From Enterobacteria phage IME_EC2, in the sequence record NC_047742.1: a stretch of 41,510 nucleotides of DNA; one strand, 5' to 3'. Of this stretch, positions 4,741-37,717 are shown one piece after another. The notes under the pieces were generated by a model that was given only the letters and a program-made list of their open reading frames with translations, did no database searches and was not told the DNA's origin. The first letter of the stretch is position 1. Every line of letters begins with the position of its first letter. The translations under genes and the position numbers were made by a program.

Positions 4741-4758
4741 TTTAGCAAAAAGTGCTAT
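4741..4758 (-). promoter_or_regulatory. Promoter-like dyad copy 2 (ATAGCACTTTTTGCTAAA on minus strand), -10-like TATTAT 22-23 bp downstream
   Basis: Read directly; lies between a terminator and the next minus-strand gene. Confidence 0.5.
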
Positions 4759-4762
4759 ACGC

Positions 4763-4786
4763 AAAAAAGGCCCCGGAGGGCCTTGT
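4763..4786 (-). terminator. intrinsic terminator for minus-strand operon (AAGGCCC-TCCG-GGGCCTT + U-run)
   Basis: GC hairpin followed on minus strand by TTTTTTG, directly after stop of ORF 4788..5528. Confidence 0.6.
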
Positions 4787-4787
4787 G

Positions 4788-5528
4788 TCAGAATGGAGCG
4801 TTTTCGATGTAGACCGCGACGGCGAAGCCTTCGGGCGTGGCGCTTCGGATGTTCTTCGTTCGTGTGCTGGATCCGCCCAGTCTCGACCAGCCCGGATTAT
4901 CCTTAACAGCCGGGACGCTCTGGAATGCCGGGAAGCGGAAGCCGCCACCGCACCAGATCCCCGTCTGCTTCGGGTACGCGTCCCGCGCCGGATAGATCTC
5001 CGGGTAGAGGCTATGCTGGTGATCCTCCGGCAAGTAGCCGCCGAAGTTGTAGGGGTGGAACCAGTGATCGCAAGGTCGCCACATCGTGGAGAGCCGGGAG
5101 ATCTTCGGATTCTCCAGCATCCAGGGGACCAGCGTTTTGTCCTCATAGTCGCCGTTTTCGTACCCGGCAAACGTAGCCACCTGCTCGACCATCTTCGCCA
5201 GCGCGACGGCCTTCTCCTGGAAGCGTGGATCCTTCTTGCGCTTCGCTTCCCACCATCTGGCCCCGGTACAGGTTAGATCGGTGCATTCAGCAAAGGAGGC
5301 CACGAAGATCACGCCCGGCCCGACTTCATCGGCGATTCTGAGCGCTTCTACTTCCGTGTTGTCTGCGTCGAACATCCGGCCCACACGGATCAGGTTCGGC
5401 TCGTCGGCGTCTGGGTGGATCCCTGGCTCGTGCTGCCCGTCATACATCCAGCATTCCACGCCAGCCTCCAGCCACTTGTCCACCATGATCCGGGTCAGGT
5501 TAAACAGGAAAATCGCCTTATGCTTCAC
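4788..5528 (-). CDS. hypothetical protein (246 aa) in Dam/clamp-like operon
   Basis: ORF 4788..5561 trimmed to GTG (VKHKAIF) with AGGA upstream; start is uncertain (an ATG 14 codons downstream is an alternative); no family recognised. Confidence 0.55.
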   Translation of the reverse strand: MKHKAIFLFNLTRIMVDKWLEAGVECWMYDGQHEPGIHPDADEPNLIRVGRMFDADNTEVEALRIADEVGPGVIFVASFAECTDLTCTGARWWEAKRKKDPRFQEKAVALAKMVEQVATFAGYENGDYEDKTLVPWMLENPKISRLSTMWRPCDHWFHPYNFGGYLPEDHQHSLYPEIYPARDAYPKQTGIWCGGGFRFPAFQSVPAVKDNPGWSRLGGSSTRTKNIRSATPEGFAVAVYIENAPF

Positions 5529-5751
5529 GGTTCTGATCCTTCTCGTACTCGTCGGCGTCACGCTTGATCAGCGCGTCCCACTGGTCCATATGTACCGGGT
5601 TATAGTCCTGCTCGAAAGAGAGATCGAGCGCCTCGGCGAAGTGCTCGGCCTCCTCACGGGAGGCCACCAGCTTACGCGCCATTAACTCGTCCGCGACCTT
5701 CTCCTGGAAGATGGCCCAGCGGCTATTAGTGTGACCGTCGTTATATTTCAT
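5518..5751 (-). CDS. hypothetical protein (77 aa, acidic)
   Basis: ORF track. Confidence 0.5.
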   Translation of the reverse strand: MKYNDGHTNSRWAIFQEKVADELMARKLVASREEAEHFAEALDLSFEQDYNPVHMDQWDALIKRDADEYEKDQNREA

Positions 5752-5754
5752 TGC

Positions 5755-6336
5755 TTACACTCTCGCGGGCATAATGATCAGGGTTGCCTCGCCGTCCGGC
5801 GTGGTCAGGTTCACGCGGATCGGCTCCGCTGCGCCGTTAAAGTTCAGTTTCGCAAAAGGCATCTTGATCCCGAACTTCTTCGCCAGCCTCTCGACCATTC
5901 CGAGGTAAGGCGTCGCCACGCCGATCTCGTGGACGGCCTTCGAGTTCTCGCGGGCCTTGTTCAGTAACGCGTCCACGTTCGGATAATTGGCCTCCACAAT
6001 GTCCACGGTCCCCACAGCGACGCGGGCCTTTTTGTGGTCCACTTCTTCGAGGTCCTTCGGCTTGTCTGCCGGAATGTCCAGCCAGTACACGATCCCCGCT
6101 TCGGTATCGATCACGGCGGAGAAGATCCGCCCAGTCGGTGGCGTGGAGATTGAGAGGATAATCCCCTCCTCCGGCGCGTTTACCAGCTTATGGGTACTTT
6201 CCATGCAAACATGACCGTTAGACGTGCGGATCCGGTTCCCGATGAAGTGGAGCGCGTTCAGGTAGTAGCGGACGTCCTGCTGGCCTTTGGTGAGTTGGTG
6301 AGCGCGTAAGGCGCTTACTGGTGCATAAATAATCAT
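5755..6336 (-). CDS. DnaN-like beta sliding-clamp homolog, truncated (about two domains)
   Basis: QQDVRYYLNALHF matches DnaN QDVRYYLNGMLFE (start of domain II); C-terminus EATLIIMPARV matches DnaN C-terminus AAYVVMPMRL; 193 aa versus 366 aa for E. coli DnaN. Confidence 0.55.
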   Translation of the reverse strand: MIIYAPVSALRAHQLTKGQQDVRYYLNALHFIGNRIRTSNGHVCMESTHKLVNAPEEGIILSISTPPTGRIFSAVIDTEAGIVYWLDIPADKPKDLEEVDHKKARVAVGTVDIVEANYPNVDALLNKARENSKAVHEIGVATPYLGMVERLAKKFGIKMPFAKLNFNGAAEPIRVNLTTPDGEATLIIMPARV

Positions 6337-6352
6337 CTCTGGGTCCTCTCGG

Positions 6353-6994
6353 TTAAATCATCGTTTTGCCTTCGAACATCATTTCCGCCTGGGTCAGATA
6401 TTCAGTCTTGATCGGTCCGCGCTTCTTCGGCTTGATAACGAACATCACGGACGGCTTGCTGTTTTTCTTGCCCGCGACTTCGGTCCCTGCCTTCACGAAC
6501 GCCACGCGCCCGGAGTTCTCTCCGTCGCTGGTGATGTGAATTACCAGGCTCCCGGCGTCCAGCGCCTTCTTAAACCACGCCGTGGACGCGTCGGAGTTCA
6601 GGAGGAAAACGGTCGTAACGTCGCGATCCTTCGCTTGCTGGATGGCCTTCACGATCCACGGAAGCGGCTCGGCGTAAGGAGGATTGCACCAGGCCAGCCC
6701 GCCCTCCGCGCCCCAGTCTACGCCGTCCTTGAGGGCGTCCGTTTTCTCGTCCAGATAGACGTCACAAAGCGCGTTTGCTTTCTCCGCTGCGACGTCGATC
6801 CCGAACTGCCCGAAGCGCTTCACAGCCCAGTCGAACAGCCAGCGCGGGGTCTGCCACTTCTGACGGATAGCGTCCGGCGTCTTGGACTTGTTGAAGCGGC
6901 GACCGCTAACAGTGGTCACGTCTGCCGCTGCGCGTTCCGCTTCGGTCATGCCGTCCACATGGTCGATCGTGGTGGTGTCTTTCTCGTCTTTCAT
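6353..6994 (-). CDS. phage N6-adenine DNA methyltransferase (Dam family)
   Basis: WQTPRWLFDW near N-terminus and catalytic-type motif NPPY (LAWCNPPYAE), typical of phage N6A-MTases. Confidence 0.8.
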   Translation of the reverse strand: MKDEKDTTTIDHVDGMTEAERAAADVTTVSGRRFNKSKTPDAIRQKWQTPRWLFDWAVKRFGQFGIDVAAEKANALCDVYLDEKTDALKDGVDWGAEGGLAWCNPPYAEPLPWIVKAIQQAKDRDVTTVFLLNSDASTAWFKKALDAGSLVIHITSDGENSGRVAFVKAGTEVAGKKNSKPSVMFVIKPKKRGPIKTEYLTQAEMMFEGKTMI

Positions 6995-7049
6995 CTGCTG
7001 CCCTTTTTTGGTTGGTGGTGACTAACGATAATTGATTAACTGTTTTGTG

Positions 7050-7068
7050 TTTTAGCAAAAAGTGCTAT
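7050..7068 (-). promoter_or_regulatory. Promoter-like dyad copy 3 (ATAGCACTTTTTGCTAAAA on minus strand), TATCGT 22 bp downstream
   Basis: Read directly; about 58 bp upstream of the Dam start codon. Confidence 0.5.
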
Positions 7069-7125
7069 TTATGGCTTCTCACGTTTCCCTGTAGCAACAT
7101 TAGCGCCGCTGGTATCGACGCATTA

Positions 7126-7151
7126 AGCCCCCGCGCCGGGGCTTTTTTTTT
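7126..7151 (+). terminator. terminator-like hairpin (AGCCCC-CGCGCC-GGGGCT + T9), plus-strand polarity
   Basis: Strong hairpin plus T9 on the plus strand, abutting the stop of the minus-strand primase gene; minus-strand side has only an A-run upstream. Confidence 0.5.
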
Positions 7152-7968
7152 ACCCGAACGCCCCCGCAAGATGCCCGCCGACGCATGGCCTCCCCGTCCT
7201 CTCGTAGCCGTACAGGAAAACCTCGTCCGGGTCAGTGTAGACGAACCGGATCTCCCGATCGCCATCGTAGATCGCCGACGCCTGGATCGCGTTCATAGGC
7301 CGGAACGTCAGCCAGACCTCCGCCTCCCCTCGCGCCGCCACGTTCACGGCATGGACCGGATCCGCCACCAGATACACCGGAGCGTCCGGCGCTGGGTGGA
7401 TCAGCCCTACCGCGCCCCACGTCGGGCCACCAGCGGCAAACACCACAGACCTGTCGGAGCCGATCTTCGCCACGTTGCACCACGGCCCCAGCGATCCCCC
7501 CAGTGGACGAGCGCATGGAACATACAGGAAGCCGTCGCGCATTGCGCCTTTGCTCATGACCTTTTCCACGTCCTCCGGGGTCAGCTCCCAGTCCTGCGCG
7601 GGCTTGTCCTGCTGGCGGGCATACTTGCGGGCCTCTTTGACGATCGTTTCCCGCTTCTCCGGGGTGAGTCCGCCTATCCAGTCGCCCAGGTCGTTGATCG
7701 CTTCGTTGAATGGCTGCGATCTGCTGGTCATAAACCAAAACATGCCATCACGAGCGCCACCGCACGAGCCGGAACAGTACCCGAAGCCCTCGGCCTTCTT
7801 CGTCTGCTGCTTATGGCCCCAGCGAAAGCGATCCGTCCCGCCGCATATCGGGCAAGGCTGGTGATTGCCGTTAAACGCCTTGCGGTCCCAGCCGCACAGA
7901 TCGAGGAGCGCCTGTTCCCACTTGCCGGGCATCGCGGCGAGAACGTCCTCTTTTTTATAAATTGCCAT
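7150..7968 (-). CDS. putative DNA primase (P4-type Zn-ribbon plus TOPRIM-like region)
   Basis: HQPCPICGGTDRFRW zinc-binding motif typical of phage/plasmid primases; AGGAGG SD. Confidence 0.55.
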   Translation of the reverse strand: MAIYKKEDVLAAMPGKWEQALLDLCGWDRKAFNGNHQPCPICGGTDRFRWGHKQQTKKAEGFGYCSGSCGGARDGMFWFMTSRSQPFNEAINDLGDWIGGLTPEKRETIVKEARKYARQQDKPAQDWELTPEDVEKVMSKGAMRDGFLYVPCARPLGGSLGPWCNVAKIGSDRSVVFAAGGPTWGAVGLIHPAPDAPVYLVADPVHAVNVAARGEAEVWLTFRPMNAIQASAIYDGDREIRFVYTDPDEVFLYGYERTGRPCVGGHLAGAFG

Positions 7969-8030
7969 CTTGCCCTCCTGAGTTTTCCCGGTTACTATAA
8001 ATCACGCTTTAATGATATTACAAGGAATAA

Positions 8031-10073
8031 ATGGAAATGGTCGAGACATTAGAAAGGCAGATCGCGGCCCTCGATCGCGACGCCATTCTCCGCGCCCTCG
8101 GTGATATGCCCGTAACGCCATACGATCACCAGTTCGTCGCATATGAGGCTTGCGCGAAGGCTATCCGTAAATATCCGGGGCCTGTCATTGTGGACGCCGC
8201 CGTGAGCGCCGGGAAAACCATCATGATCTCCATGCTGGCCCGCCGGATCAGGGATATGGGATTCCCCGCCATGATCCTGTCCCGCCAGGGTGAGATCATC
8301 GATCAGGACTTCGAGGAGTTGCGGAACTTCGGCGTAAACTCCTCGATCTACTGCGCCAGCTTAGGCCGCAAGTCTGCACACTTCCCGATCGTCGTCGGCT
8401 CCGAGGGTACAGTGATCGGAGGGATCCGCCCAGGCCAGCCCCTCGCCCATTACGCGCCGTTGTTCCTGCTGATCGATGAATGCCATCACGTCAACATTGA
8501 GGACCTGATCCGCTCGGAGGAGCGCGTGGTCCCGGAGTACCTGCGGGACGATAACGGGACCGTTATCCTCGACGGCTTCGGGGATCCGACCATTATCGGC
8601 GAGCATAAGGGCGAGACATACGAGGAGATGATCGAGGCGGGTCGCTCCAGTTATACGATCATCATCCGAACGTTACAGGCCCGCGCCCGGTCAGTGTACG
8701 GGAAGGAACTCCGCATTATCGGCTACACTGGGACGCCTTACAGGGGCGTGGAGTCCATCATCCAGCCAGACCTCGAACAGCCCGGATTCTGGCGTGAAAA
8801 GGTCTGCGAGATCTCGACGGAATACCTCGTCAGCGTTGGCGCTGTCGTTCCGACTCACTTCGGGATCTCCAATCTCCACTACAACCTCGACCAGTGGCGA
8901 TCGACGGGTGAGGACGGCATTAAGGAGTTCACGGACTCCGACATGGACGCCATGCAAAAGGCGATCCTGAAAGAGAAAAAGCTCACTCATGAGATCATGG
9001 CGGAGGTCTACGCCATCGCCCAGCACAGGAACGGCGTGTTAGTGACGTGTGCGGGCGTGAGACACTGCAAACAGGCGGCGGAGGCCCTTCCCCCTGGTAC
9101 GCCTTACGCCATCATTACGGACGACACGACGGGCAAGAAGCGCATGGACATTTTGCGCCGCGCCAATACCGGGGAGATCAAGTTCATTTTCCAGGTTAAC
9201 GCCCTAACGACTGGCGTTAACGTCCCGTTCTGGGACACGTCCGTGATCCTGCGGAAGATCGGCTCCCTCACGCTCCTAACCCAGCTTTTAGGCCGTGGGA
9301 TGCGAATCCTTAAGCCGTTCCACATCGCCGCCGGGGTGACGAAAGAGGATCACCTGGTTCTCGACTACGCCGGGACGCTGGACGAACTCGGATCCCTGTA
9401 CTTCTCCCCGCTGCTGGAGGCATATCAGCACAGCGCCGACGAGAGCAAAGGAGAATTAGAGTTAGACTGTCCGAAGTGTCGCAAGGCGGGCCATCCTACG
9501 CTCAACGGCAAACACGCCCGACGCTGCCGCTACGTGGACGAGAACGGCGATCGCTGCGAACACTTTTTCCAGTTCATCACCTGCGACGACTGGAAGGACG
9601 CCAGCGGGCGGAAAGTGGTCCAAAAGGGATGCGGGGCGCAAAACGACATAGTAGCCAGGATCTGCCGCTGCTGCGGGAACTCGCTCGTAGATCCGAACAA
9701 GAACTTAAGCCGGACCACGTACAGCCGCGACGACTACGCGACCGTGAGAGGGTTCAGAATTGAATTAGCGCGAGGGACTGGGGGGATCGCCTTCCGGTAC
9801 GAACTGGAGAAGGACGGGGACCAGTTTGTGGCCTGGCAAGTATTTTGGCCCGGTAGCGACTCGCCAGCGGCGAAAAAGGAATGGGTCCATAATGGCATCC
9901 TTAAGCACGTCCTGGACGGCAAAATGAGGGCCACGATCAAGAAATGCCGGACGCCCCAGCAGGTATTAGAGTTCGCCCCGTACTTCATGGCCCCGCTTAA
10001 GGTCAGCCACCGGAAGATCGGCAAGGGTAAAGACGTTATCACTAACAAAATTTTCATGAATGAGGAGTTTTAA
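8031..10073 (+). CDS. SF2 DNA helicase (DExH box) with C-terminal Cys-rich zinc-finger region
   Basis: Motif I AAVSAGKT, motif II DECHH, motif VI QLLGRGMR; C-terminal CPKC...CRY...C...CRCC. Confidence 0.8.
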   Translation: MEMVETLERQIAALDRDAILRALGDMPVTPYDHQFVAYEACAKAIRKYPGPVIVDAAVSAGKTIMISMLARRIRDMGFPAMILSRQGEIIDQDFEELRNFGVNSSIYCASLGRKSAHFPIVVGSEGTVIGGIRPGQPLAHYAPLFLLIDECHHVNIEDLIRSEERVVPEYLRDDNGTVILDGFGDPTIIGEHKGETYEEMIEAGRSSYTIIIRTLQARARSVYGKELRIIGYTGTPYRGVESIIQPDLEQPGFWREKVCEISTEYLVSVGAVVPTHFGISNLHYNLDQWRSTGEDGIKEFTDSDMDAMQKAILKEKKLTHEIMAEVYAIAQHRNGVLVTCAGVRHCKQAAEALPPGTPYAIITDDTTGKKRMDILRRANTGEIKFIFQVNALTTGVNVPFWDTSVILRKIGSLTLLTQLLGRGMRILKPFHIAAGVTKEDHLVLDYAGTLDELGSLYFSPLLEAYQHSADESKGELELDCPKCRKAGHPTLNGKHARRCRYVDENGDRCEHFFQFITCDDWKDASGRKVVQKGCGAQNDIVARICRCCGNSLVDPNKNLSRTTYSRDDYATVRGFRIELARGTGGIAFRYELEKDGDQFVAWQVFWPGSDSPAAKKEWVHNGILKHVLDGKMRATIKKCRTPQQVLEFAPYFMAPLKVSHRKIGKGKDVITNKIFMNEEF

Positions 10074-10541
10074 ATGTCCGTACTGAATAAAAAGACTGAG
10101 TTCTGGCGCGAGTTCTATCTGGACCATATCCCGACCTACTCGCCACACGAGGACGTCGAACAGCAAAACATGGCGAGCAACATCCGGGAGATCTACGGCG
10201 ATCCCCTCACTGATCCCGACGCGCTGCTGGCGTTCCACCCAGTAAACGAGAGCGGCGGCTCCAGCGATCCCCGCTACGGGGCGAAGTTGAACGCGCTCGG
10301 ACGACTGGCGGGGATCTCGGACTGGGTGATCCTTGAGCCTCGCGGTGGCTATGGCTTCGCGCTGATCGAGTTGAAGCGGAACAGCCGGAGCAAATCACGG
10401 CTTAAGCCGGAGCAAAAGGAGATCCTCGAACGGGCGCGGGCGCGTGGTGGCTGGACTGCTGTCGCGTGGGGCTGCGAGGCTGGCCTGGCTGCTCTCGAAT
10501 ATTATCTTAAATTACCCGTTGCAAACATCACGAAAGAATGA
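10074..10541 (+). CDS. VRR-NUC domain nuclease
   Basis: DWVILEP...GFALIELKR...LKPEQKEILERARARGGWTAVAW pattern of VRR-NUC PD-(D/E)xK nucleases; start overlaps helicase stop. Confidence 0.7.
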   Translation: MSVLNKKTEFWREFYLDHIPTYSPHEDVEQQNMASNIREIYGDPLTDPDALLAFHPVNESGGSSDPRYGAKLNALGRLAGISDWVILEPRGGYGFALIELKRNSRSKSRLKPEQKEILERARARGGWTAVAWGCEAGLAALEYYLKLPVANITKE

Positions 10542-10580
10542 TTTAATCTTTCTCACACCAACAACGTGAGAGAGAACAAA

Positions 10581-11624
10581 ATGGAAACAGCATTCGACCT
10601 TATCCCGGCGCTGCCATCGTTCGACGTTGGCGCGTCGCTTTTCGTTAGCGCTCGCGACGCCGATCAGTTGACTAACGAACAGTACCACGAGGACGAGATC
10701 TACATTACCGGGTCGAGCCTCTGGACCATTTACAGCAAATGCCCCGCCGCGTGGCGCTTCCAGAAGGCACAGGAAGCGAAAGCGAAAAAACTCAATTCCG
10801 CCCAGAAGCCGCTCACATTCGGGACCACTTCCCACACGATGTTACTTGAGCCGGATCGCTTCGCTCGTGAGTTCTTCCGTCTGCCTAACCCGGACGACTT
10901 CCCGGACCTGATCACCTCTGTAGCGAAGATGCAAAGCTGGTTAAAGGATCGAGGCCAGAAGGGCTACTCCAACAAAACCGCCGAAGAACTGATCGCGATG
11001 TGTCGCGCTGTCCAGGCCCCGGACGAAGTGCTCCACATCTGGCACGAGATCGAGGCGAACGCCATCAAAGAGGCGAACGGTCGCGAGATCGTCCCGGCGA
11101 AGGACTGGGACCGCGTTCACTCAATGCGCGACGTTCTGCTGGCTAACCACAATTACCGCCGGATCATTGAGACGGGGGTCCCGGAGTTGTCGCTGTTCTG
11201 TATTATCGACGGCGTTCCCGTTAAGGTCCGACTCGACCGCGTGACGGACGTCGGGGAGATTATCGACTTTAAGACGACGCAAAGCGCGGAGCCGGAGAAG
11301 TTCGGGCGACTGGCCCACGATCTCGGCTACTGGTGCAAAATGGCTTTACAACATGATTGTTTCAAGTTGGCCTACCAGCAGGATCCGAACGGTACGAAGT
11401 TACTCGTACAGGAAAAAGACGAGCCGTGGCTGGCCCTCATGAATCGCTTAACGCCGGAACAGTTGCTCGTCGGTCGCGGTCAGTACAAGACGGCGCTCCA
11501 GGTCCTCAAACACTGCCGCGAGCGTGACGTGTGGCCCGCCTATGCGAACGGGCAAGAGGAGATCGCGCTTTCTACTCCGGCATACTTACAACAACGTTAC
11601 AAAGAATATTTTAAAGAGGTGTAA
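10581..11624 (+). CDS. PD-(D/E)xK family exonuclease (recombination exonuclease-like)
   Basis: IIDFKTTQ...HDLGYWCKMALQ nuclease-type motifs; sits directly upstream of ERF and SSB; trimmed to ATG with GAGAGA SD. Confidence 0.55.
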   Translation: METAFDLIPALPSFDVGASLFVSARDADQLTNEQYHEDEIYITGSSLWTIYSKCPAAWRFQKAQEAKAKKLNSAQKPLTFGTTSHTMLLEPDRFAREFFRLPNPDDFPDLITSVAKMQSWLKDRGQKGYSNKTAEELIAMCRAVQAPDEVLHIWHEIEANAIKEANGREIVPAKDWDRVHSMRDVLLANHNYRRIIETGVPELSLFCIIDGVPVKVRLDRVTDVGEIIDFKTTQSAEPEKFGRLAHDLGYWCKMALQHDCFKLAYQQDPNGTKLLVQEKDEPWLALMNRLTPEQLLVGRGQYKTALQVLKHCRERDVWPAYANGQEEIALSTPAYLQQRYKEYFKEV

Positions 11625-11626
11625 TC

Positions 11627-12349
11627 ATGGAATTTTCAACCGATAAGAATCAGATCGTAGTCGCAATGGTTAAGGCTCGCGCCGCCATGATGTCAGAAGC
11701 GAAAAAGAACACGCAAAATAATCACCTCCATAACTGGTACGCGGATTTAGGATCCTTCCTGGCGACCGTTCGCCCTGCTCTGGAGTCGAACGGGCTGATC
11801 GTCATTCAGTCCCCACTCCCGGCGGTGGAAAAAGGCGGGATGCTCGTCCTACCGCTGGAGACGATGATCCTCCACGAGTCCGGCGAGTTCATGAGCGCCG
11901 TTATGGAGATGCCGCTGGCGTTTAACCCCAAAAGCGCCCCGGCTCACGCTGTCGGCTCGGCGATCACCTATGCCCGACGCTATCACCTGGCGGCTCTGTT
12001 CGGCATCACCCAGGCAGACGACGACGGCAACGCGACGAAGAAAACCGCCCGTCAGTGGATCGAGGACCTGAAAGGGATCGAGGACGTCGAGAAGCTGGAC
12101 GAAGCCGTGGGCCGTATTGTCCACAATCTGGCAGACGATAAGGCGAGCGTGAAGGTCGTCCGTGACTGGCACATTTCCCGCAAAGCGGAACTTCGCGCCA
12201 GCGAGTCGAAAGGATTTAATCCGGCCTCGGTTGTCCAGAAGAAAAAAGCCGCCGATAATGCCCCGGCAAAAGAACAGCCCGCCGCCCCGGTAGAACCACA
12301 GCAGGAAGCGCCAGCGGCGGACGATAAACCGAACATTGAGGAGTTCTAA
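11627..12349 (+). CDS. erf: ERF-family single-strand annealing protein
   Basis: [16 protein letters not shown] resembles the conserved ERF core; gene order exo-ERF-SSB. Confidence 0.7.
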
Positions 12350-12351
12350 AC

Positions 12352-12903
12352 ATGGCATCACGCGGCGTTAACAAGGTGATTCTGGTCGGCAATCTGGGCC
12401 AGGATCCCGAAGTGCGTTATATGCCGTCGGGTGGAGCGGTGGCGAACATTACGATCGCCACCTCTGAATCCTGGCGCGACAAGCAGACGGGCGAACAGAA
12501 AGAACAGACGGAATGGCATCGCGTCGTATTGTTCGGCAAGCTGGCGGAGGTCGCCGGGGAGTATCTGCGCAAGGGTTCACAGGTTTACATTGAGGGCCAG
12601 CTTAGGACGCGCAAATGGACGGACCAAAGCGGCGCGGAGAAGTACACGACGGAGGTCGTCGTGAACGTCGGCGGCACTATGCAAATGCTCGGCGGGAAGA
12701 AAGAGGGAGGCCAGTCTGGGGGGAATGGACCTACCCACTCCGGCGGCGGTGGCAATTCTCGCAATTCTCCGGGCCGTGGCGCGTCTAATTCGCAAAATCC
12801 GGGCAAGGGTAGCGGGTCGGGTCCTGCGTCGTCTGGAGGCGCTTCTGGGGCCTCTAATGGCGGGGAGCCTCCGATGGACTTTGACGACGATATACCGTTT
12901 TAA
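12352..12903 (+). CDS. ssb: single-stranded DNA-binding protein
   Basis: OB-fold SSB N-terminus ([36 protein letters not shown]), Gly-rich linker, acidic tail DDDIPF. Confidence 0.9.
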
Positions 12904-12910
12904 CGGGTGA

Positions 12911-12946
12911 GGCCCTTCGGGGCCGATCCTCCCAGGAGCCGACGAG
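12911..12946 (+). promoter_or_regulatory. UUCG-tetraloop hairpin (GGCCC-TTCG-GGGCC) fused to GATCCTCCCAGGAG SD context, copy 2
   Basis: Near-identical to element at 404-438; directly precedes the HNH start codon. Confidence 0.5.
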
Positions 12947-13387
12947 ATGAAACAATGCGCCATCTGTCACGAATCGAAGCCGCTGGAGGAGTTCCACAGG
13001 AACAAGAGCAAGAAGGACGGGAGGGACTCGCGCTGTCGCCAGTGTAAGAGCGGGCTTTATAAGAGTTACTACCACGGCGATCCAGCCCGAAAGGAGCGGA
13101 TCATCGAAAACGTTAAAACGTACCAGGCCGGACCGGGGCGAGAGAAGGCGAACGCCACAAAGTCCAGCTATCACACAAAACATCCAAAGAAGCGCCGCGC
13201 CCATAATCTGGTTTATAACGCGATACGGCGCGGAGAGCTAACGAGGGGGCCGTGTGAGGTCTGCGGAGCGGAGAAGGTAGTGGGACACCATGACGACTAC
13301 GATCGCCCGTTAGAGGTCCGCTGGCTCTGCGAGAGGCATCATAAAGAGTGGCATCTGGTTAACGGTGAAGCGCTTAACCCAGATTGA
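12947..13387 (+). CDS. HNH endonuclease
   Basis: N-terminal Cys cluster (CAICH...CRQCK) and C-terminal HNH-type motif (VVGHHDDYDRPLEVRWLCERHHKEWH). Confidence 0.8.
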   Translation: MKQCAICHESKPLEEFHRNKSKKDGRDSRCRQCKSGLYKSYYHGDPARKERIIENVKTYQAGPGREKANATKSSYHTKHPKKRRAHNLVYNAIRRGELTRGPCEVCGAEKVVGHHDDYDRPLEVRWLCERHHKEWHLVNGEALNPD

Positions 13388-13444
13388 TTTAGATAACGGT
13401 TTAATGAATAATCACGGAGACGTTAACCAATGAAGGAGCCGATC

Positions 13445-28248: not shown

Positions 28249-28267
28249 TTTTAGCAATTCGTGCTAT
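28249..28267 (-). promoter_or_regulatory. Promoter-like dyad copy 4 (ATAGCACGAATTGCTAAAA on minus strand), TATATT 22 bp downstream
   Basis: Read directly; followed by conserved leader hairpin GGCGGGG-AATGGT-CCCCGCC and SD. Confidence 0.5.
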
Positions 28268-36211: not shown

Positions 36212-36230
36212 TTTTAGCAATTCGTGCTAT
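36212..36230 (-). promoter_or_regulatory. Promoter-like dyad copy 5 (ATAGCACGAATTGCTAAAA on minus strand), TATAGT 22 bp downstream
   Basis: Read directly; flanking about 90 bp nearly identical to copy 1 (inverted) and copy 4. Confidence 0.5.
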
Positions 36231-37518: not shown

Positions 37519-37537
37519 GTTTTAGCAATTCGTGCTA
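37519..37537 (-). promoter_or_regulatory. Promoter-like dyad copy 6 (ATAGCACGAATTGCTAAAA on minus strand), TAATAT 22 bp downstream
   Basis: Read directly; overlaps the stop of the upstream small ORF. Confidence 0.5.
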
Positions 37538-37717
37538 TTTATCCTTTCTCATTCGACGGAGTGATCGGACCAGATCGACGACGGCCCAGCCAGACGCCAG
37601 CAGGAACGGCGCGAGGACCGCCAGCTTTTCCCAGTTGGTCAGGATCGCGTCGGTCCCTCTGGTCATGCCGATCCAGGCTATCACCAGGACCTCGTAAGCG
37701 AAGGCGAGCCAGATCAT
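37535..37717 (-). CDS. small membrane protein (60 aa)
   Basis: Two hydrophobic segments; ORF track. Confidence 0.45.
   Translation of the reverse strand: MIWLAFAYEVLVIAWIGMTRGTDAILTNWEKLAVLAPFLLASGWAVVDLVRSLRRMRKDK

Follow-up and report, generated by a model that had tools for sequence, protein, structure and literature searches.

A Conserved Murrayvirus Gene Unit Encoding a Dam Methylase, a Beta-Clamp Fragment and a Dcm-Like Protein

Introduction

The genes analyzed here, a block of four on the minus strand of Enterobacteria phage IME_EC2 (NC_047742.1), have counterparts in several described systems. The whole stretch of 41,510 nucleotides (nt) was studied and is referred to as the window; the block occupies positions 4788-6994. 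The first counterpart is the phage family of Dam adenine methyltransferases (PF05869/TIGR01712), typified by the enzymes of phages T1 and VT2, which are orphan enzymes with no partner nuclease. The second is the sliding clamp of Escherichia coli, DnaN (PDB 1MMI/2POL), a protein of 366 amino acids (aa) in which L177, P242, V247, and M362-L366 take part in a cleft (PMC2685083). The third is the Dcm of phage K42, a member of the Drexlerviridae near the BASEL phage KarlJaspers/Bas06, which is encoded by a 711-bp gene, has C82, E128, and K175/K176 as catalytic residues, and yields an AlphaFold2 model that superposes on DNMT3A (bioRxiv 10.1101/2023.08.16.553469). K42 Dcm raises 5-methylcytosine (5mC) on the multicopy single-stranded DNA (msDNA) of retron Ec86 and thereby activates that defence; its site, CCWGG, was assigned from the known Dcm motif together with msDNA mutants (bioRxiv 10.1101/2023.08.16.553469).

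A preliminary description of the window, made from the letters of the sequence, presented the block as a compact transcription unit with its own dyad promoter and terminator, encoding a Dam methylase, a clamp-like protein, a 77-aa protein, and a 246-aa protein that it could not place in any family. It suggested that the unit may be a DNA modification or replication-takeover module. Our comparative analyses of sequence, predicted structure, and gene neighbourhood probably describe a conserved early or middle unit of Murrayvirus phages, podophages with a portal of the P22 type, one that joins DNA modification genes with a protein interacting with the host replisome.

Four Tightly Packed Genes Under Purifying Selection

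The window represents almost the entire genome of about 42 kb and includes genes for a P22-type portal, a zinc-ribbon primase, and a superfamily 2 (SF2) helicase. The 2.4-kb region that contains the unit is 99.2% identical to that of Escherichia phage sortsyn, a Murrayvirus, and 88-92% identical in phages ST231, Lumpael, sortregn, and KMB41. Its four open reading frames (ORFs), all on the minus strand, are as follows.

6994..6353, minus strand: Dam, 213 aa, a phage-type N6-adenine DNA methyltransferase
6336..5755, minus strand: mini-clamp, 193 aa, a DnaN fragment
5751..5518, minus strand: 77-aa acidic protein, phrog_2676
5528..4788, minus strand: Dcm-like protein, 246 aa, GTG start

From Dam to the Dcm-like gene, gaps of 16 nt and 3 nt are followed by an 11-nt overlap; a plausible Shine-Dalgarno sequence precedes every gene. 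For the Dcm-like gene, an AAGGA ribosome-binding site lies 8 nt upstream of the GTG at 5528; mechanical ORF calling gives 257 aa from an earlier GTG, and the 246-aa start agrees with the sortsyn annotation. We compared the four genes with seven related loci and obtained ratios of nonsynonymous to synonymous substitution rates (dN/dS) of 0.007-0.28 for Dam, 0.07-0.32 for the 193-aa protein, 0.34-0.44 for the 77-aa protein, and 0.13-0.28 for the 246-aa protein. Given this purifying selection on all four (0.007-0.44), all are genuine protein-coding genes, including the 246-aa ORF, whose failure to be translated would have undermined the preliminary description. The span of 4788-6994 proposed there fits the coding sequences, while the promoter element and the terminator fall just outside it.

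All four genes are annotated as hypothetical proteins in sortsyn. In other records, the products are named, in the same order, Dam; "putative beta sliding clamp" or "RusA-like Holliday junction resolvase"; hypothetical protein; and "dcm methylase" or "putative DNA cytosine C5 methyltransferase". The 77-aa protein has an isoelectric point (pI) of 4.6 and is confined to the phage group of the window, where it forms seven protein clusters in addition to phrog_2676; it is absent from Sortsne and IME279-like phages. As for replication, the annotation of KMB41, a related phage, lists no gene for a DNA polymerase. The replication and recombination block, at window positions 8031-13400 and read together with the KMB41 annotation, comprises a helicase, a VRR-NUC nuclease, an exonuclease, an ERF recombinase, and SSB, with no DNA polymerase, so that the phage must use host Pol III.

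A Beta-Clamp Fragment That Retains the Cleft

The 193-aa protein on its own matched no entry in Pfam or PDB. A profile search of 1.84 billion representative proteins recovered 748 relatives (clusters at 50% identity), nearly all of 170-215 aa. When a profile of 61 family members was compared with PDB, it matched E. coli DnaN with E = 2.2e-22, and 37 of the 61 members match PF02767. Alignment of the family with DnaN by hhalign gave a probability of 99.3% and placed residues 8-193 on DnaN 137-366 with a deletion of approximately 253-314; the DnaN residues represented are 137-252 and 315-366. The protein corresponds to domain II of the beta clamp joined to the C-terminal half of domain III (1.5 domains), the latter being homologous to the last beta-alpha-beta-beta-beta half of that domain in E. 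coli DnaN, and its predicted fold is the clamp fold at high model confidence. The clamp-like protein of the preliminary description is thus a true DnaN homologue, although not a clamp, since it has 1.5 domains and is without the ring-closing parts. We call it a mini-clamp. It differs from DnaN in its length (193 versus 366 aa), its phage origin, and the absence of domain I and residues ~253-314; its pI is 7.9. The bacterial clamp, by comparison, has protomers of three domains that join head to tail in a dimeric ring.

What the mini-clamp keeps is the cleft. Four DnaN cleft motifs are retained, namely DVRYYLN, xxGH, FP(D/N), and the C-terminal MPxR(L/V), the C-terminus being IMPARV where DnaN has VMPMRL. 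We fixed a list of cleft positions before comparing conservation; those on the list beyond the published ones are positions that we take, from the clamp literature, to belong to the cleft. Eleven columns are at least 90% conserved among the 61 members. The E. coli residue is present at all 11, and 10 of them are E. coli cleft residues (R152, Y154, L155, G174, H175, P242, Y323, M362, P363, and R365 in E. coli numbering). Conservation differed strongly between cleft and non-cleft positions (Mann-Whitney p = 1e-7). Against a fully conserved pocket, the window protein itself departs from the E. coli cleft at R176V, L177C, R246A, N320A, and M364A. From its sequence, the 193-aa protein looks like a "cleft-only" module that keeps the pocket for clamp-binding motifs.

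Could the protein instead be a true processivity factor, four copies of which, or a mixture with host beta, form a DNA-encircling ring that tethers host Pol III? The confidently modelled clamp fold would suit such a role, as would a phage without its own polymerase, and the arithmetic is suggestive, in that three beta-alpha-beta-beta-beta halves in each of four copies would supply the 12 halves of a clamp ring. Yet the protein has neither domain I nor the half of domain III that forms the dimer interface, which excludes a ring closed through the canonical interface; the missing DnaN stretch of ~253-314 contains the I272/L273 dimer interface of the E. coli clamp. Moreover, the conservation sits on the cleft rather than on inner-ring or interface positions. 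We therefore regard a ring-forming mini-clamp as improbable and favour the cleft-only module.

Members of the family occur in 282 phage records, including those of Skatevirus, Dhillonvirus, Serratia phage Eta, and lambdoid phages, under the labels "DNA polymerase III beta" or "RusA-like Holliday junction resolvase". A RusA identity (PF05866) was rejected for the 193-aa protein, which has no Pfam match and a clamp fold. The RusA-like label, carried by RefSeq and by PHROG phrog_3007, appears to be a propagated annotation error for proteins that are DnaN fragments. We found no functional study of the family in the literature. A broader proposal, that phages possess a widespread and uncharacterized class of cleft-only mini-clamps acting as soluble monomers that capture or titrate host proteins with clamp-binding motifs, is one we advance tentatively, as the less probable side of the question.

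We also looked for clamp-binding motifs encoded within the phage genome. The candidate in the 77-aa protein (ALDLSF) was rejected; it varies in homologues (LEDSF, LDMSY, LDASY) and resembles a structural helix motif. We likewise rejected a second candidate, QAEMMF at the C-terminal end of Dam, since it is part of the Pfam domain and other mini-clamp phages do not conserve it, having TLTEMMY or TKQDMLD instead. The sole other match to the motif expression was QADLF in the P22-type portal protein.

A Dcm-Like Protein With a Degenerate Cofactor Loop

In contrast to its treatment in the preliminary description, where it was unassignable, the 246-aa protein can be given a family by profile and structure searches of the kind proposed there. 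The protein alone matched nothing in Pfam, NCBIfam, PADLOC, or PDB sequence searches. It matched phrog_757, "DNA methyltransferase", over its full length (E = 3.8e-64) and has 182 homologous clusters, several of which are named "Dcm methylase" by NCBI; tblastn detected matches in 1485 phage records. Its AlphaFold2 model superposes best on the DNMT3 catalytic domain, with a modest separation from unrelated Rossmann proteins, which reach a score of about 10 over ~160 aligned residues. The model has the catalytic-domain fold of cytosine-C5 methyltransferases, and the order of secondary structures fits the motifs of these enzymes: Asp30 ends strand 2, Cys82 follows strand 4, and ENP follows strand 5. 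Motif IV is FAEC (Cys82) and motif VI is ENP at 139-141 (Glu139); Asp30 is invariant, and Cys82 and ENP occur without exception in the 199 family sequences compared. We conclude that the protein belongs to a small phage Dcm family with the C5-methyltransferase fold, an assignment that we consider sound.

M.HhaI, E. coli Dcm (PF00145), and the DNMT3 domain share with this protein a Rossmann-type fold, the order of motifs, the motif IV cysteine, and an ENP that resembles ENV. Unlike M.HhaI and E. coli Dcm, the window clade has no separate target-recognition domain, has lost the motif I glycines, and carries a glutamate before the cysteine. This replacement of the proline that precedes the catalytic cysteine (FAEC or FPEC) is found throughout the phage family, except in a branch with FPPC. 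The distance from the classical enzymes is considerable: none of 25 family members matched PF00145 at E <= 10, and hhalign of the family against E. coli Dcm gave a probability of 3%, the sole aligned stretch being GFPECTDLT on GFPCQPFS, the catalytic-cysteine motif.

The closer comparison is with K42 Dcm. The two proteins have ~236-246 aa, a C5-methyltransferase fold without a large target-recognition domain, and genes in the early region. Both have the catalytic cysteine at position 82, and the ENP glutamate and the K-x-T lysine are equivalent; the K42 residues fit the family C82, E139 (after subtraction of an 11-residue insert), and K187. As a proxy for K42 we used BubbaBully, also of the Drexlerviridae, whose 237-aa protein matches the family profile with 6e-80, has the canonical FDGSG and PPC motifs, and has weak PADLOC matches to MTase_II (1.7e-4) and DruM (0.03). 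The Drexlerviridae branch thus differs from the window protein, which has FNLTR and AEC, ~39% identity, and the 11-residue insert before ENP. While 5mC activity is known for K42 Dcm, the window protein is known from its sequence and model.

Several of these features weigh against a working methyltransferase in the window clade. Its motif I, FLFNLTR, is degenerate and has no glycine, and AEC replaces PPC. Across the 199 sequences, motif I is FDxTG, with one glycine, in most, and canonical (D/S)GSG in about 11; the glycine-less N-x-(T/S)-x together with AEC is found in about 16%, including the window clade. Because motif I is without glycine, AEC is present, and the single sequence has no match in Pfam, NCBIfam, PADLOC, or PDB, methyltransferase activity in this clade is uncertain. 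Furthermore, the membership of K42 Dcm in the family, although very likely, is deduced from gene length, residue numbering, and the BubbaBully proxy. Within the family, loss of the motif I glycines coincides with the proline-to-alanine change at FAEC. The FNLTR/AEC branch may have changed its cofactor use or lost catalysis.

In its strongest form, this line of thought would make the clade a pseudo-enzyme that binds DNA or flips bases, or an enzyme with another cofactor or substrate, and no longer an S-adenosylmethionine (SAM)-dependent methyltransferase. We give this possibility perhaps one chance in four. Against it, the cysteine, ENP, and a C-terminal TKNIRSxTPxGF block are invariant and dN/dS is 0.13-0.28, as is typical of a working active site. 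In addition, CCWGG is not avoided in the genome, occurring at its expected frequency (155 sites in the window, z ~0). We thus favour a minimal C5-methyltransferase-fold enzyme for the 246-aa protein.

Dam and the GATC Content of the Genome

The identification of the first gene as a Dam methylase was confirmed. The protein matches PF05869 over its full length (E = 1.5e-44; 152.1 bits, cutoff 28.1) and TIGR01712 above the trusted cutoff (116.7 bits versus 97.05), and further matches phrog_111 and the PADLOC orphan methyltransferase model (5e-29). Its catalytic motif, NPPY, lies within WCNPPYAEP and conforms to (D/N)PPY. In these respects it resembles the T1 and VT2 type, with nothing notable that differs, and like them it is an orphan enzyme with no partner nuclease.

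Dam presumably methylates adenine in GATC, a specificity assumed from its family and from the GATC enrichment of the genome. The whole window (1-41510) contains 522 GATC sites, or one per 80 bp, which is 3.5 times the base-composition expectation; shuffling of synonymous codons gave 311 +/- 11 sites (z = +19). The sites are evenly distributed along the genome, and most of them fall in the codon phase NNG-ATC. Enrichment is common to the whole phage group, with a median of 2.2-fold when Dam is in the locus versus 0.51-fold when it is not. This pattern is indirect evidence that fits an active GATC-specific Dam and a genome that has co-evolved with it.

Other short palindromes are scarce. GAATTC, AAGCTT, GTCGAC, CTGCAG, and GCATGC are absent from the window and CAGCTG occurs once, when 5-16 of each would be expected (z from -2.5 to -4.7). 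CTAG is rare as well, with five sites versus 29 expected.

Transcription Signals Around the Unit

We examined the sequences flanking the four genes for signals that might start and stop their transcription. The features concerned are the following.

7053..7067, minus strand: dyad TAGCA-N5-TGCTA, the copy upstream of Dam, centred ~42 nt upstream of the inferred transcription start
7030..7025, minus strand: -10-like hexamer TATCGT, 22 nt downstream of the dyad; inferred start ~7018, leader ~24 nt
4784..4767, minus strand: intrinsic terminator with a 7-bp GC-rich stem, a 4-nt loop, and U6; -13.7 kcal/mol
4743..4757, minus strand: next dyad copy, directly downstream of the terminator, starting the next minus-strand unit; -10 TATTAT after TGT
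59-75, 4742-4758, 7052-7068, 28251-28267, 36214-36230, and 37522-37538: the six dyad copies, in window positions
7125..7144, no strand assigned: hairpin between the primase and Dam genes; T9 on the plus strand only, the minus strand having A9 before it and UUAAUG after it

The terminator was detected by a terminator scan and by folding. It starts 3 nt past the last stop codon and is conserved in sortsyn, KMB41, ST231, and Lumpael; the terminator of the preliminary description is thus real, a stem-loop followed by U6. Within the unit, the scan predicted neither a terminator nor a promoter on the minus strand.

The dyad, which that description counted as the third copy of a promoter, is likewise a real sequence element. 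The 17-mer TTAGCAAAAAGTGCTAT at 7052-7068 has an exact second copy at 4742-4758, and a variant with three differences is found at four further sites, giving six copies in the window versus 0.04 expected by chance. Read toward the downstream genes, every copy has the form ATAGCAC-N4-TGCTAA, and in all six a -10-like hexamer lies 22-23 nt downstream. The hexamers at the other dyads are TATAGT, TATATT, TAATAT, and TATTAT, mostly preceded by TGn. It is this constant distance to the hexamer that places the dyad centre near -42. A centre at about -42 is the position of a class II activator site, and there is no -35 element at normal spacing. The segment comprising the dyad and TATCGT is conserved upstream of Dam in other Murrayviruses, and the dyad element itself is conserved across genera, being found in Skarpretter-like L019 and L020 and in L051. 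A GC-rich hairpin occurs in the leader after four of the dyad copies. We considered a sigma-54 reading of the dyad (TGGCAC-N5-TTGC) and rejected it by inspection, given that the AG-GC spacing is 2 nt too short.

Promoter activity of the copy upstream of Dam is a prediction, and some observations speak against it. Its hexamer, TATCGT, is the weakest of the six and is without the TG extension, and the consensus promoter scan made no call at 7030..7025. TATCGT is kept in four of five aligned sequences, KMB41 having TATCTT. One half of the dyad is altered from TGCTA to TGTTA in KMB41 and Lumpael. Use of this promoter, and co-transcription of the four genes from it, nevertheless appear plausible from the arrangement of the signals.

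A different arrangement would dispense with an autonomous operon: the four genes would form the distal part of a longer leftward early transcript, begun in the divergent promoter region of primase and helicase near 8000, and the dyad would be an operator or activator site that modulates read-through. A sigma-70-like site on the minus strand upstream of the primase gene (8023..7994, TTGTAA-18-TATAGT) could start such a transcript, and the hairpin that follows the primase gene carries a T-tract only when read on the plus strand. With no U-tract in the leftward direction, primase transcripts are likely to read through, and the hairpin probably acts as a partial stop for them; its stem is maintained by compensatory changes in relatives. 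The weakness of the hexamer at the third dyad copy points in the same direction, as does Sortsne, where a dUTPase gene lies between the primase and Dam genes and an exact pattern search found no dyad there. By contrast, each of the six dyads stands 22-23 nt from a -10 hexamer and is oriented toward the beginning of a block of genes. The conservation of the dyad with TATCGT upstream of Dam in other Murrayviruses, and the opening of the following unit with the same element right after the terminator, also argue for a start at this site. On balance we judge a wholly dependent set of genes to be the less credible arrangement, with roughly three chances in ten, and prefer a dyad-associated promoter supplemented by read-through. 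The self-contained transcription unit of the preliminary description therefore stands in its compactness, its terminator, and the absence of predicted internal signals; its promoter is putative and has a weak -10 at this copy, and read-through from primase is likely.

On the plus strand, the segment at 7069-7152 carries a strong terminator (the 7125-7144 hairpin with T9) that no plus-strand gene precedes. Between the dyad and this hairpin, the 55 nt show good conservation in four Murrayviruses out of five. This segment could yield a short antisense or divergent RNA, or serve as a bidirectional stop. An Rfam scan of the whole window gave no match.

Gene Linkage in Other Phages

The order Dam, mini-clamp, (77-aa gene), Dcm-like gene is kept in Murrayvirus, Sortsnevirus, and Skarpretter-like phages and in a few more distant contigs, down to protein identities of 43-50%. 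Because these phages have a whole-genome backbone in common, the conserved order says nothing independent about coupling. In other lineages, the genes are mostly found apart. About 55 of 79 viral loci with a Dcm-like gene have no Dam or mini-clamp within 6 kb; there, the gene is located, for example, beside a P2-type gpA or between a primase-helicase and a DNA polymerase. In a scan of viral contigs, none of 80 mini-clamp loci had an adjacent methylase, and three had a Dam-like ORF at a distance of 2.7-3.5 kb. A general coupling of mini-clamps with methyltransferases was thus rejected. Since the genes are unlinked outside the lineage, with one lambdoid exception, independent co-occurrence lends no support to a shared function. 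The proposed module of linked genes is accordingly a feature of the lineage of the window phage, and "DNA modification module" is a fair name for two of its four genes, Dam and the Dcm-like gene.

The exception, L103 (1307-2948), has a 208-aa mini-clamp immediately behind a lambda-P-type replication gene, and then a 68-aa ORF and a D12-class Dam. Here a mini-clamp is paired with an adenine methylase for a second time and independently; this D12-class Dam is unrelated to that of the window and lies two genes away. In other phages the mini-clamp has different neighbours. It follows a ParB-like or HTH_ParB protein in Skatevirus LPST10 (L189:2304-4037) and in L102:4207-5564, the early operon of LPST10 also including an annotated anti-restriction gene, and in EP23 it is isolated between structural genes. 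A Murrayvirus-like locus with 74% mini-clamp identity (L013:6580-6900) retains Dam, the mini-clamp, and the 77-aa gene, with the terminator and the next dyad directly after the 77-aa gene; the Dcm-like gene is missing there and is therefore dispensable in nature.

Discussion

Taken together, the gene structures, family and fold assignments, patterns of conservation, and terminator described above define the unit, and we infer from them how it might work. Transcripts would begin near 7018, at the promoter associated with the dyad, or reach the unit to some extent from the primase gene, and would end at 4784..4767. Dam would methylate adenine, presumably in GATC, in a GATC-dense genome. The mini-clamp would be soluble and would form no ring; as a fragment reduced to the hydrophobic cleft of the beta clamp, it would use this pocket to bind a clamp-binding-motif peptide, either from a phage protein or from a host replication or repair protein such as Pol III alpha, delta, Hda, or MutS/MutL, and would act as an adaptor or a decoy. 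The acidic 77-aa protein may be a lineage-specific accessory. The 246-aa protein would be a minimal enzyme of the C5-methyltransferase fold whose probable relative, K42 Dcm, writes 5mC. The enzyme activities, the target sequences, the partners of the mini-clamp, and whatever functional link may join the four genes are the conjectural parts of this scheme, and replication takeover by the unit, as suggested in the preliminary description, is possible.

Overall, we see in the unit an ordinary early operon of phages whose genus had been sequenced before, and the value of the analysis lies in better annotation: four genes annotated as hypothetical in sortsyn gain defensible names. Given that the Dcm of a probable relative, K42, is the trigger sensed by retron Ec86, the presence of the Dcm-like gene may predict sensitivity to this retron. 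At the same time, the degenerate SAM-binding loop raises the question of whether the window clade still methylates. The extreme GATC enrichment suggests co-evolution of the genome with Dam methylation. The mini-clamp is the unusual part, since it would offer a polymerase-less phage a simple route to engage or disarm host replication and repair factors. If this reading is true, such phages may use mini-clamps to recruit host proteins to the phage replisome or to titrate them from the host clamp.

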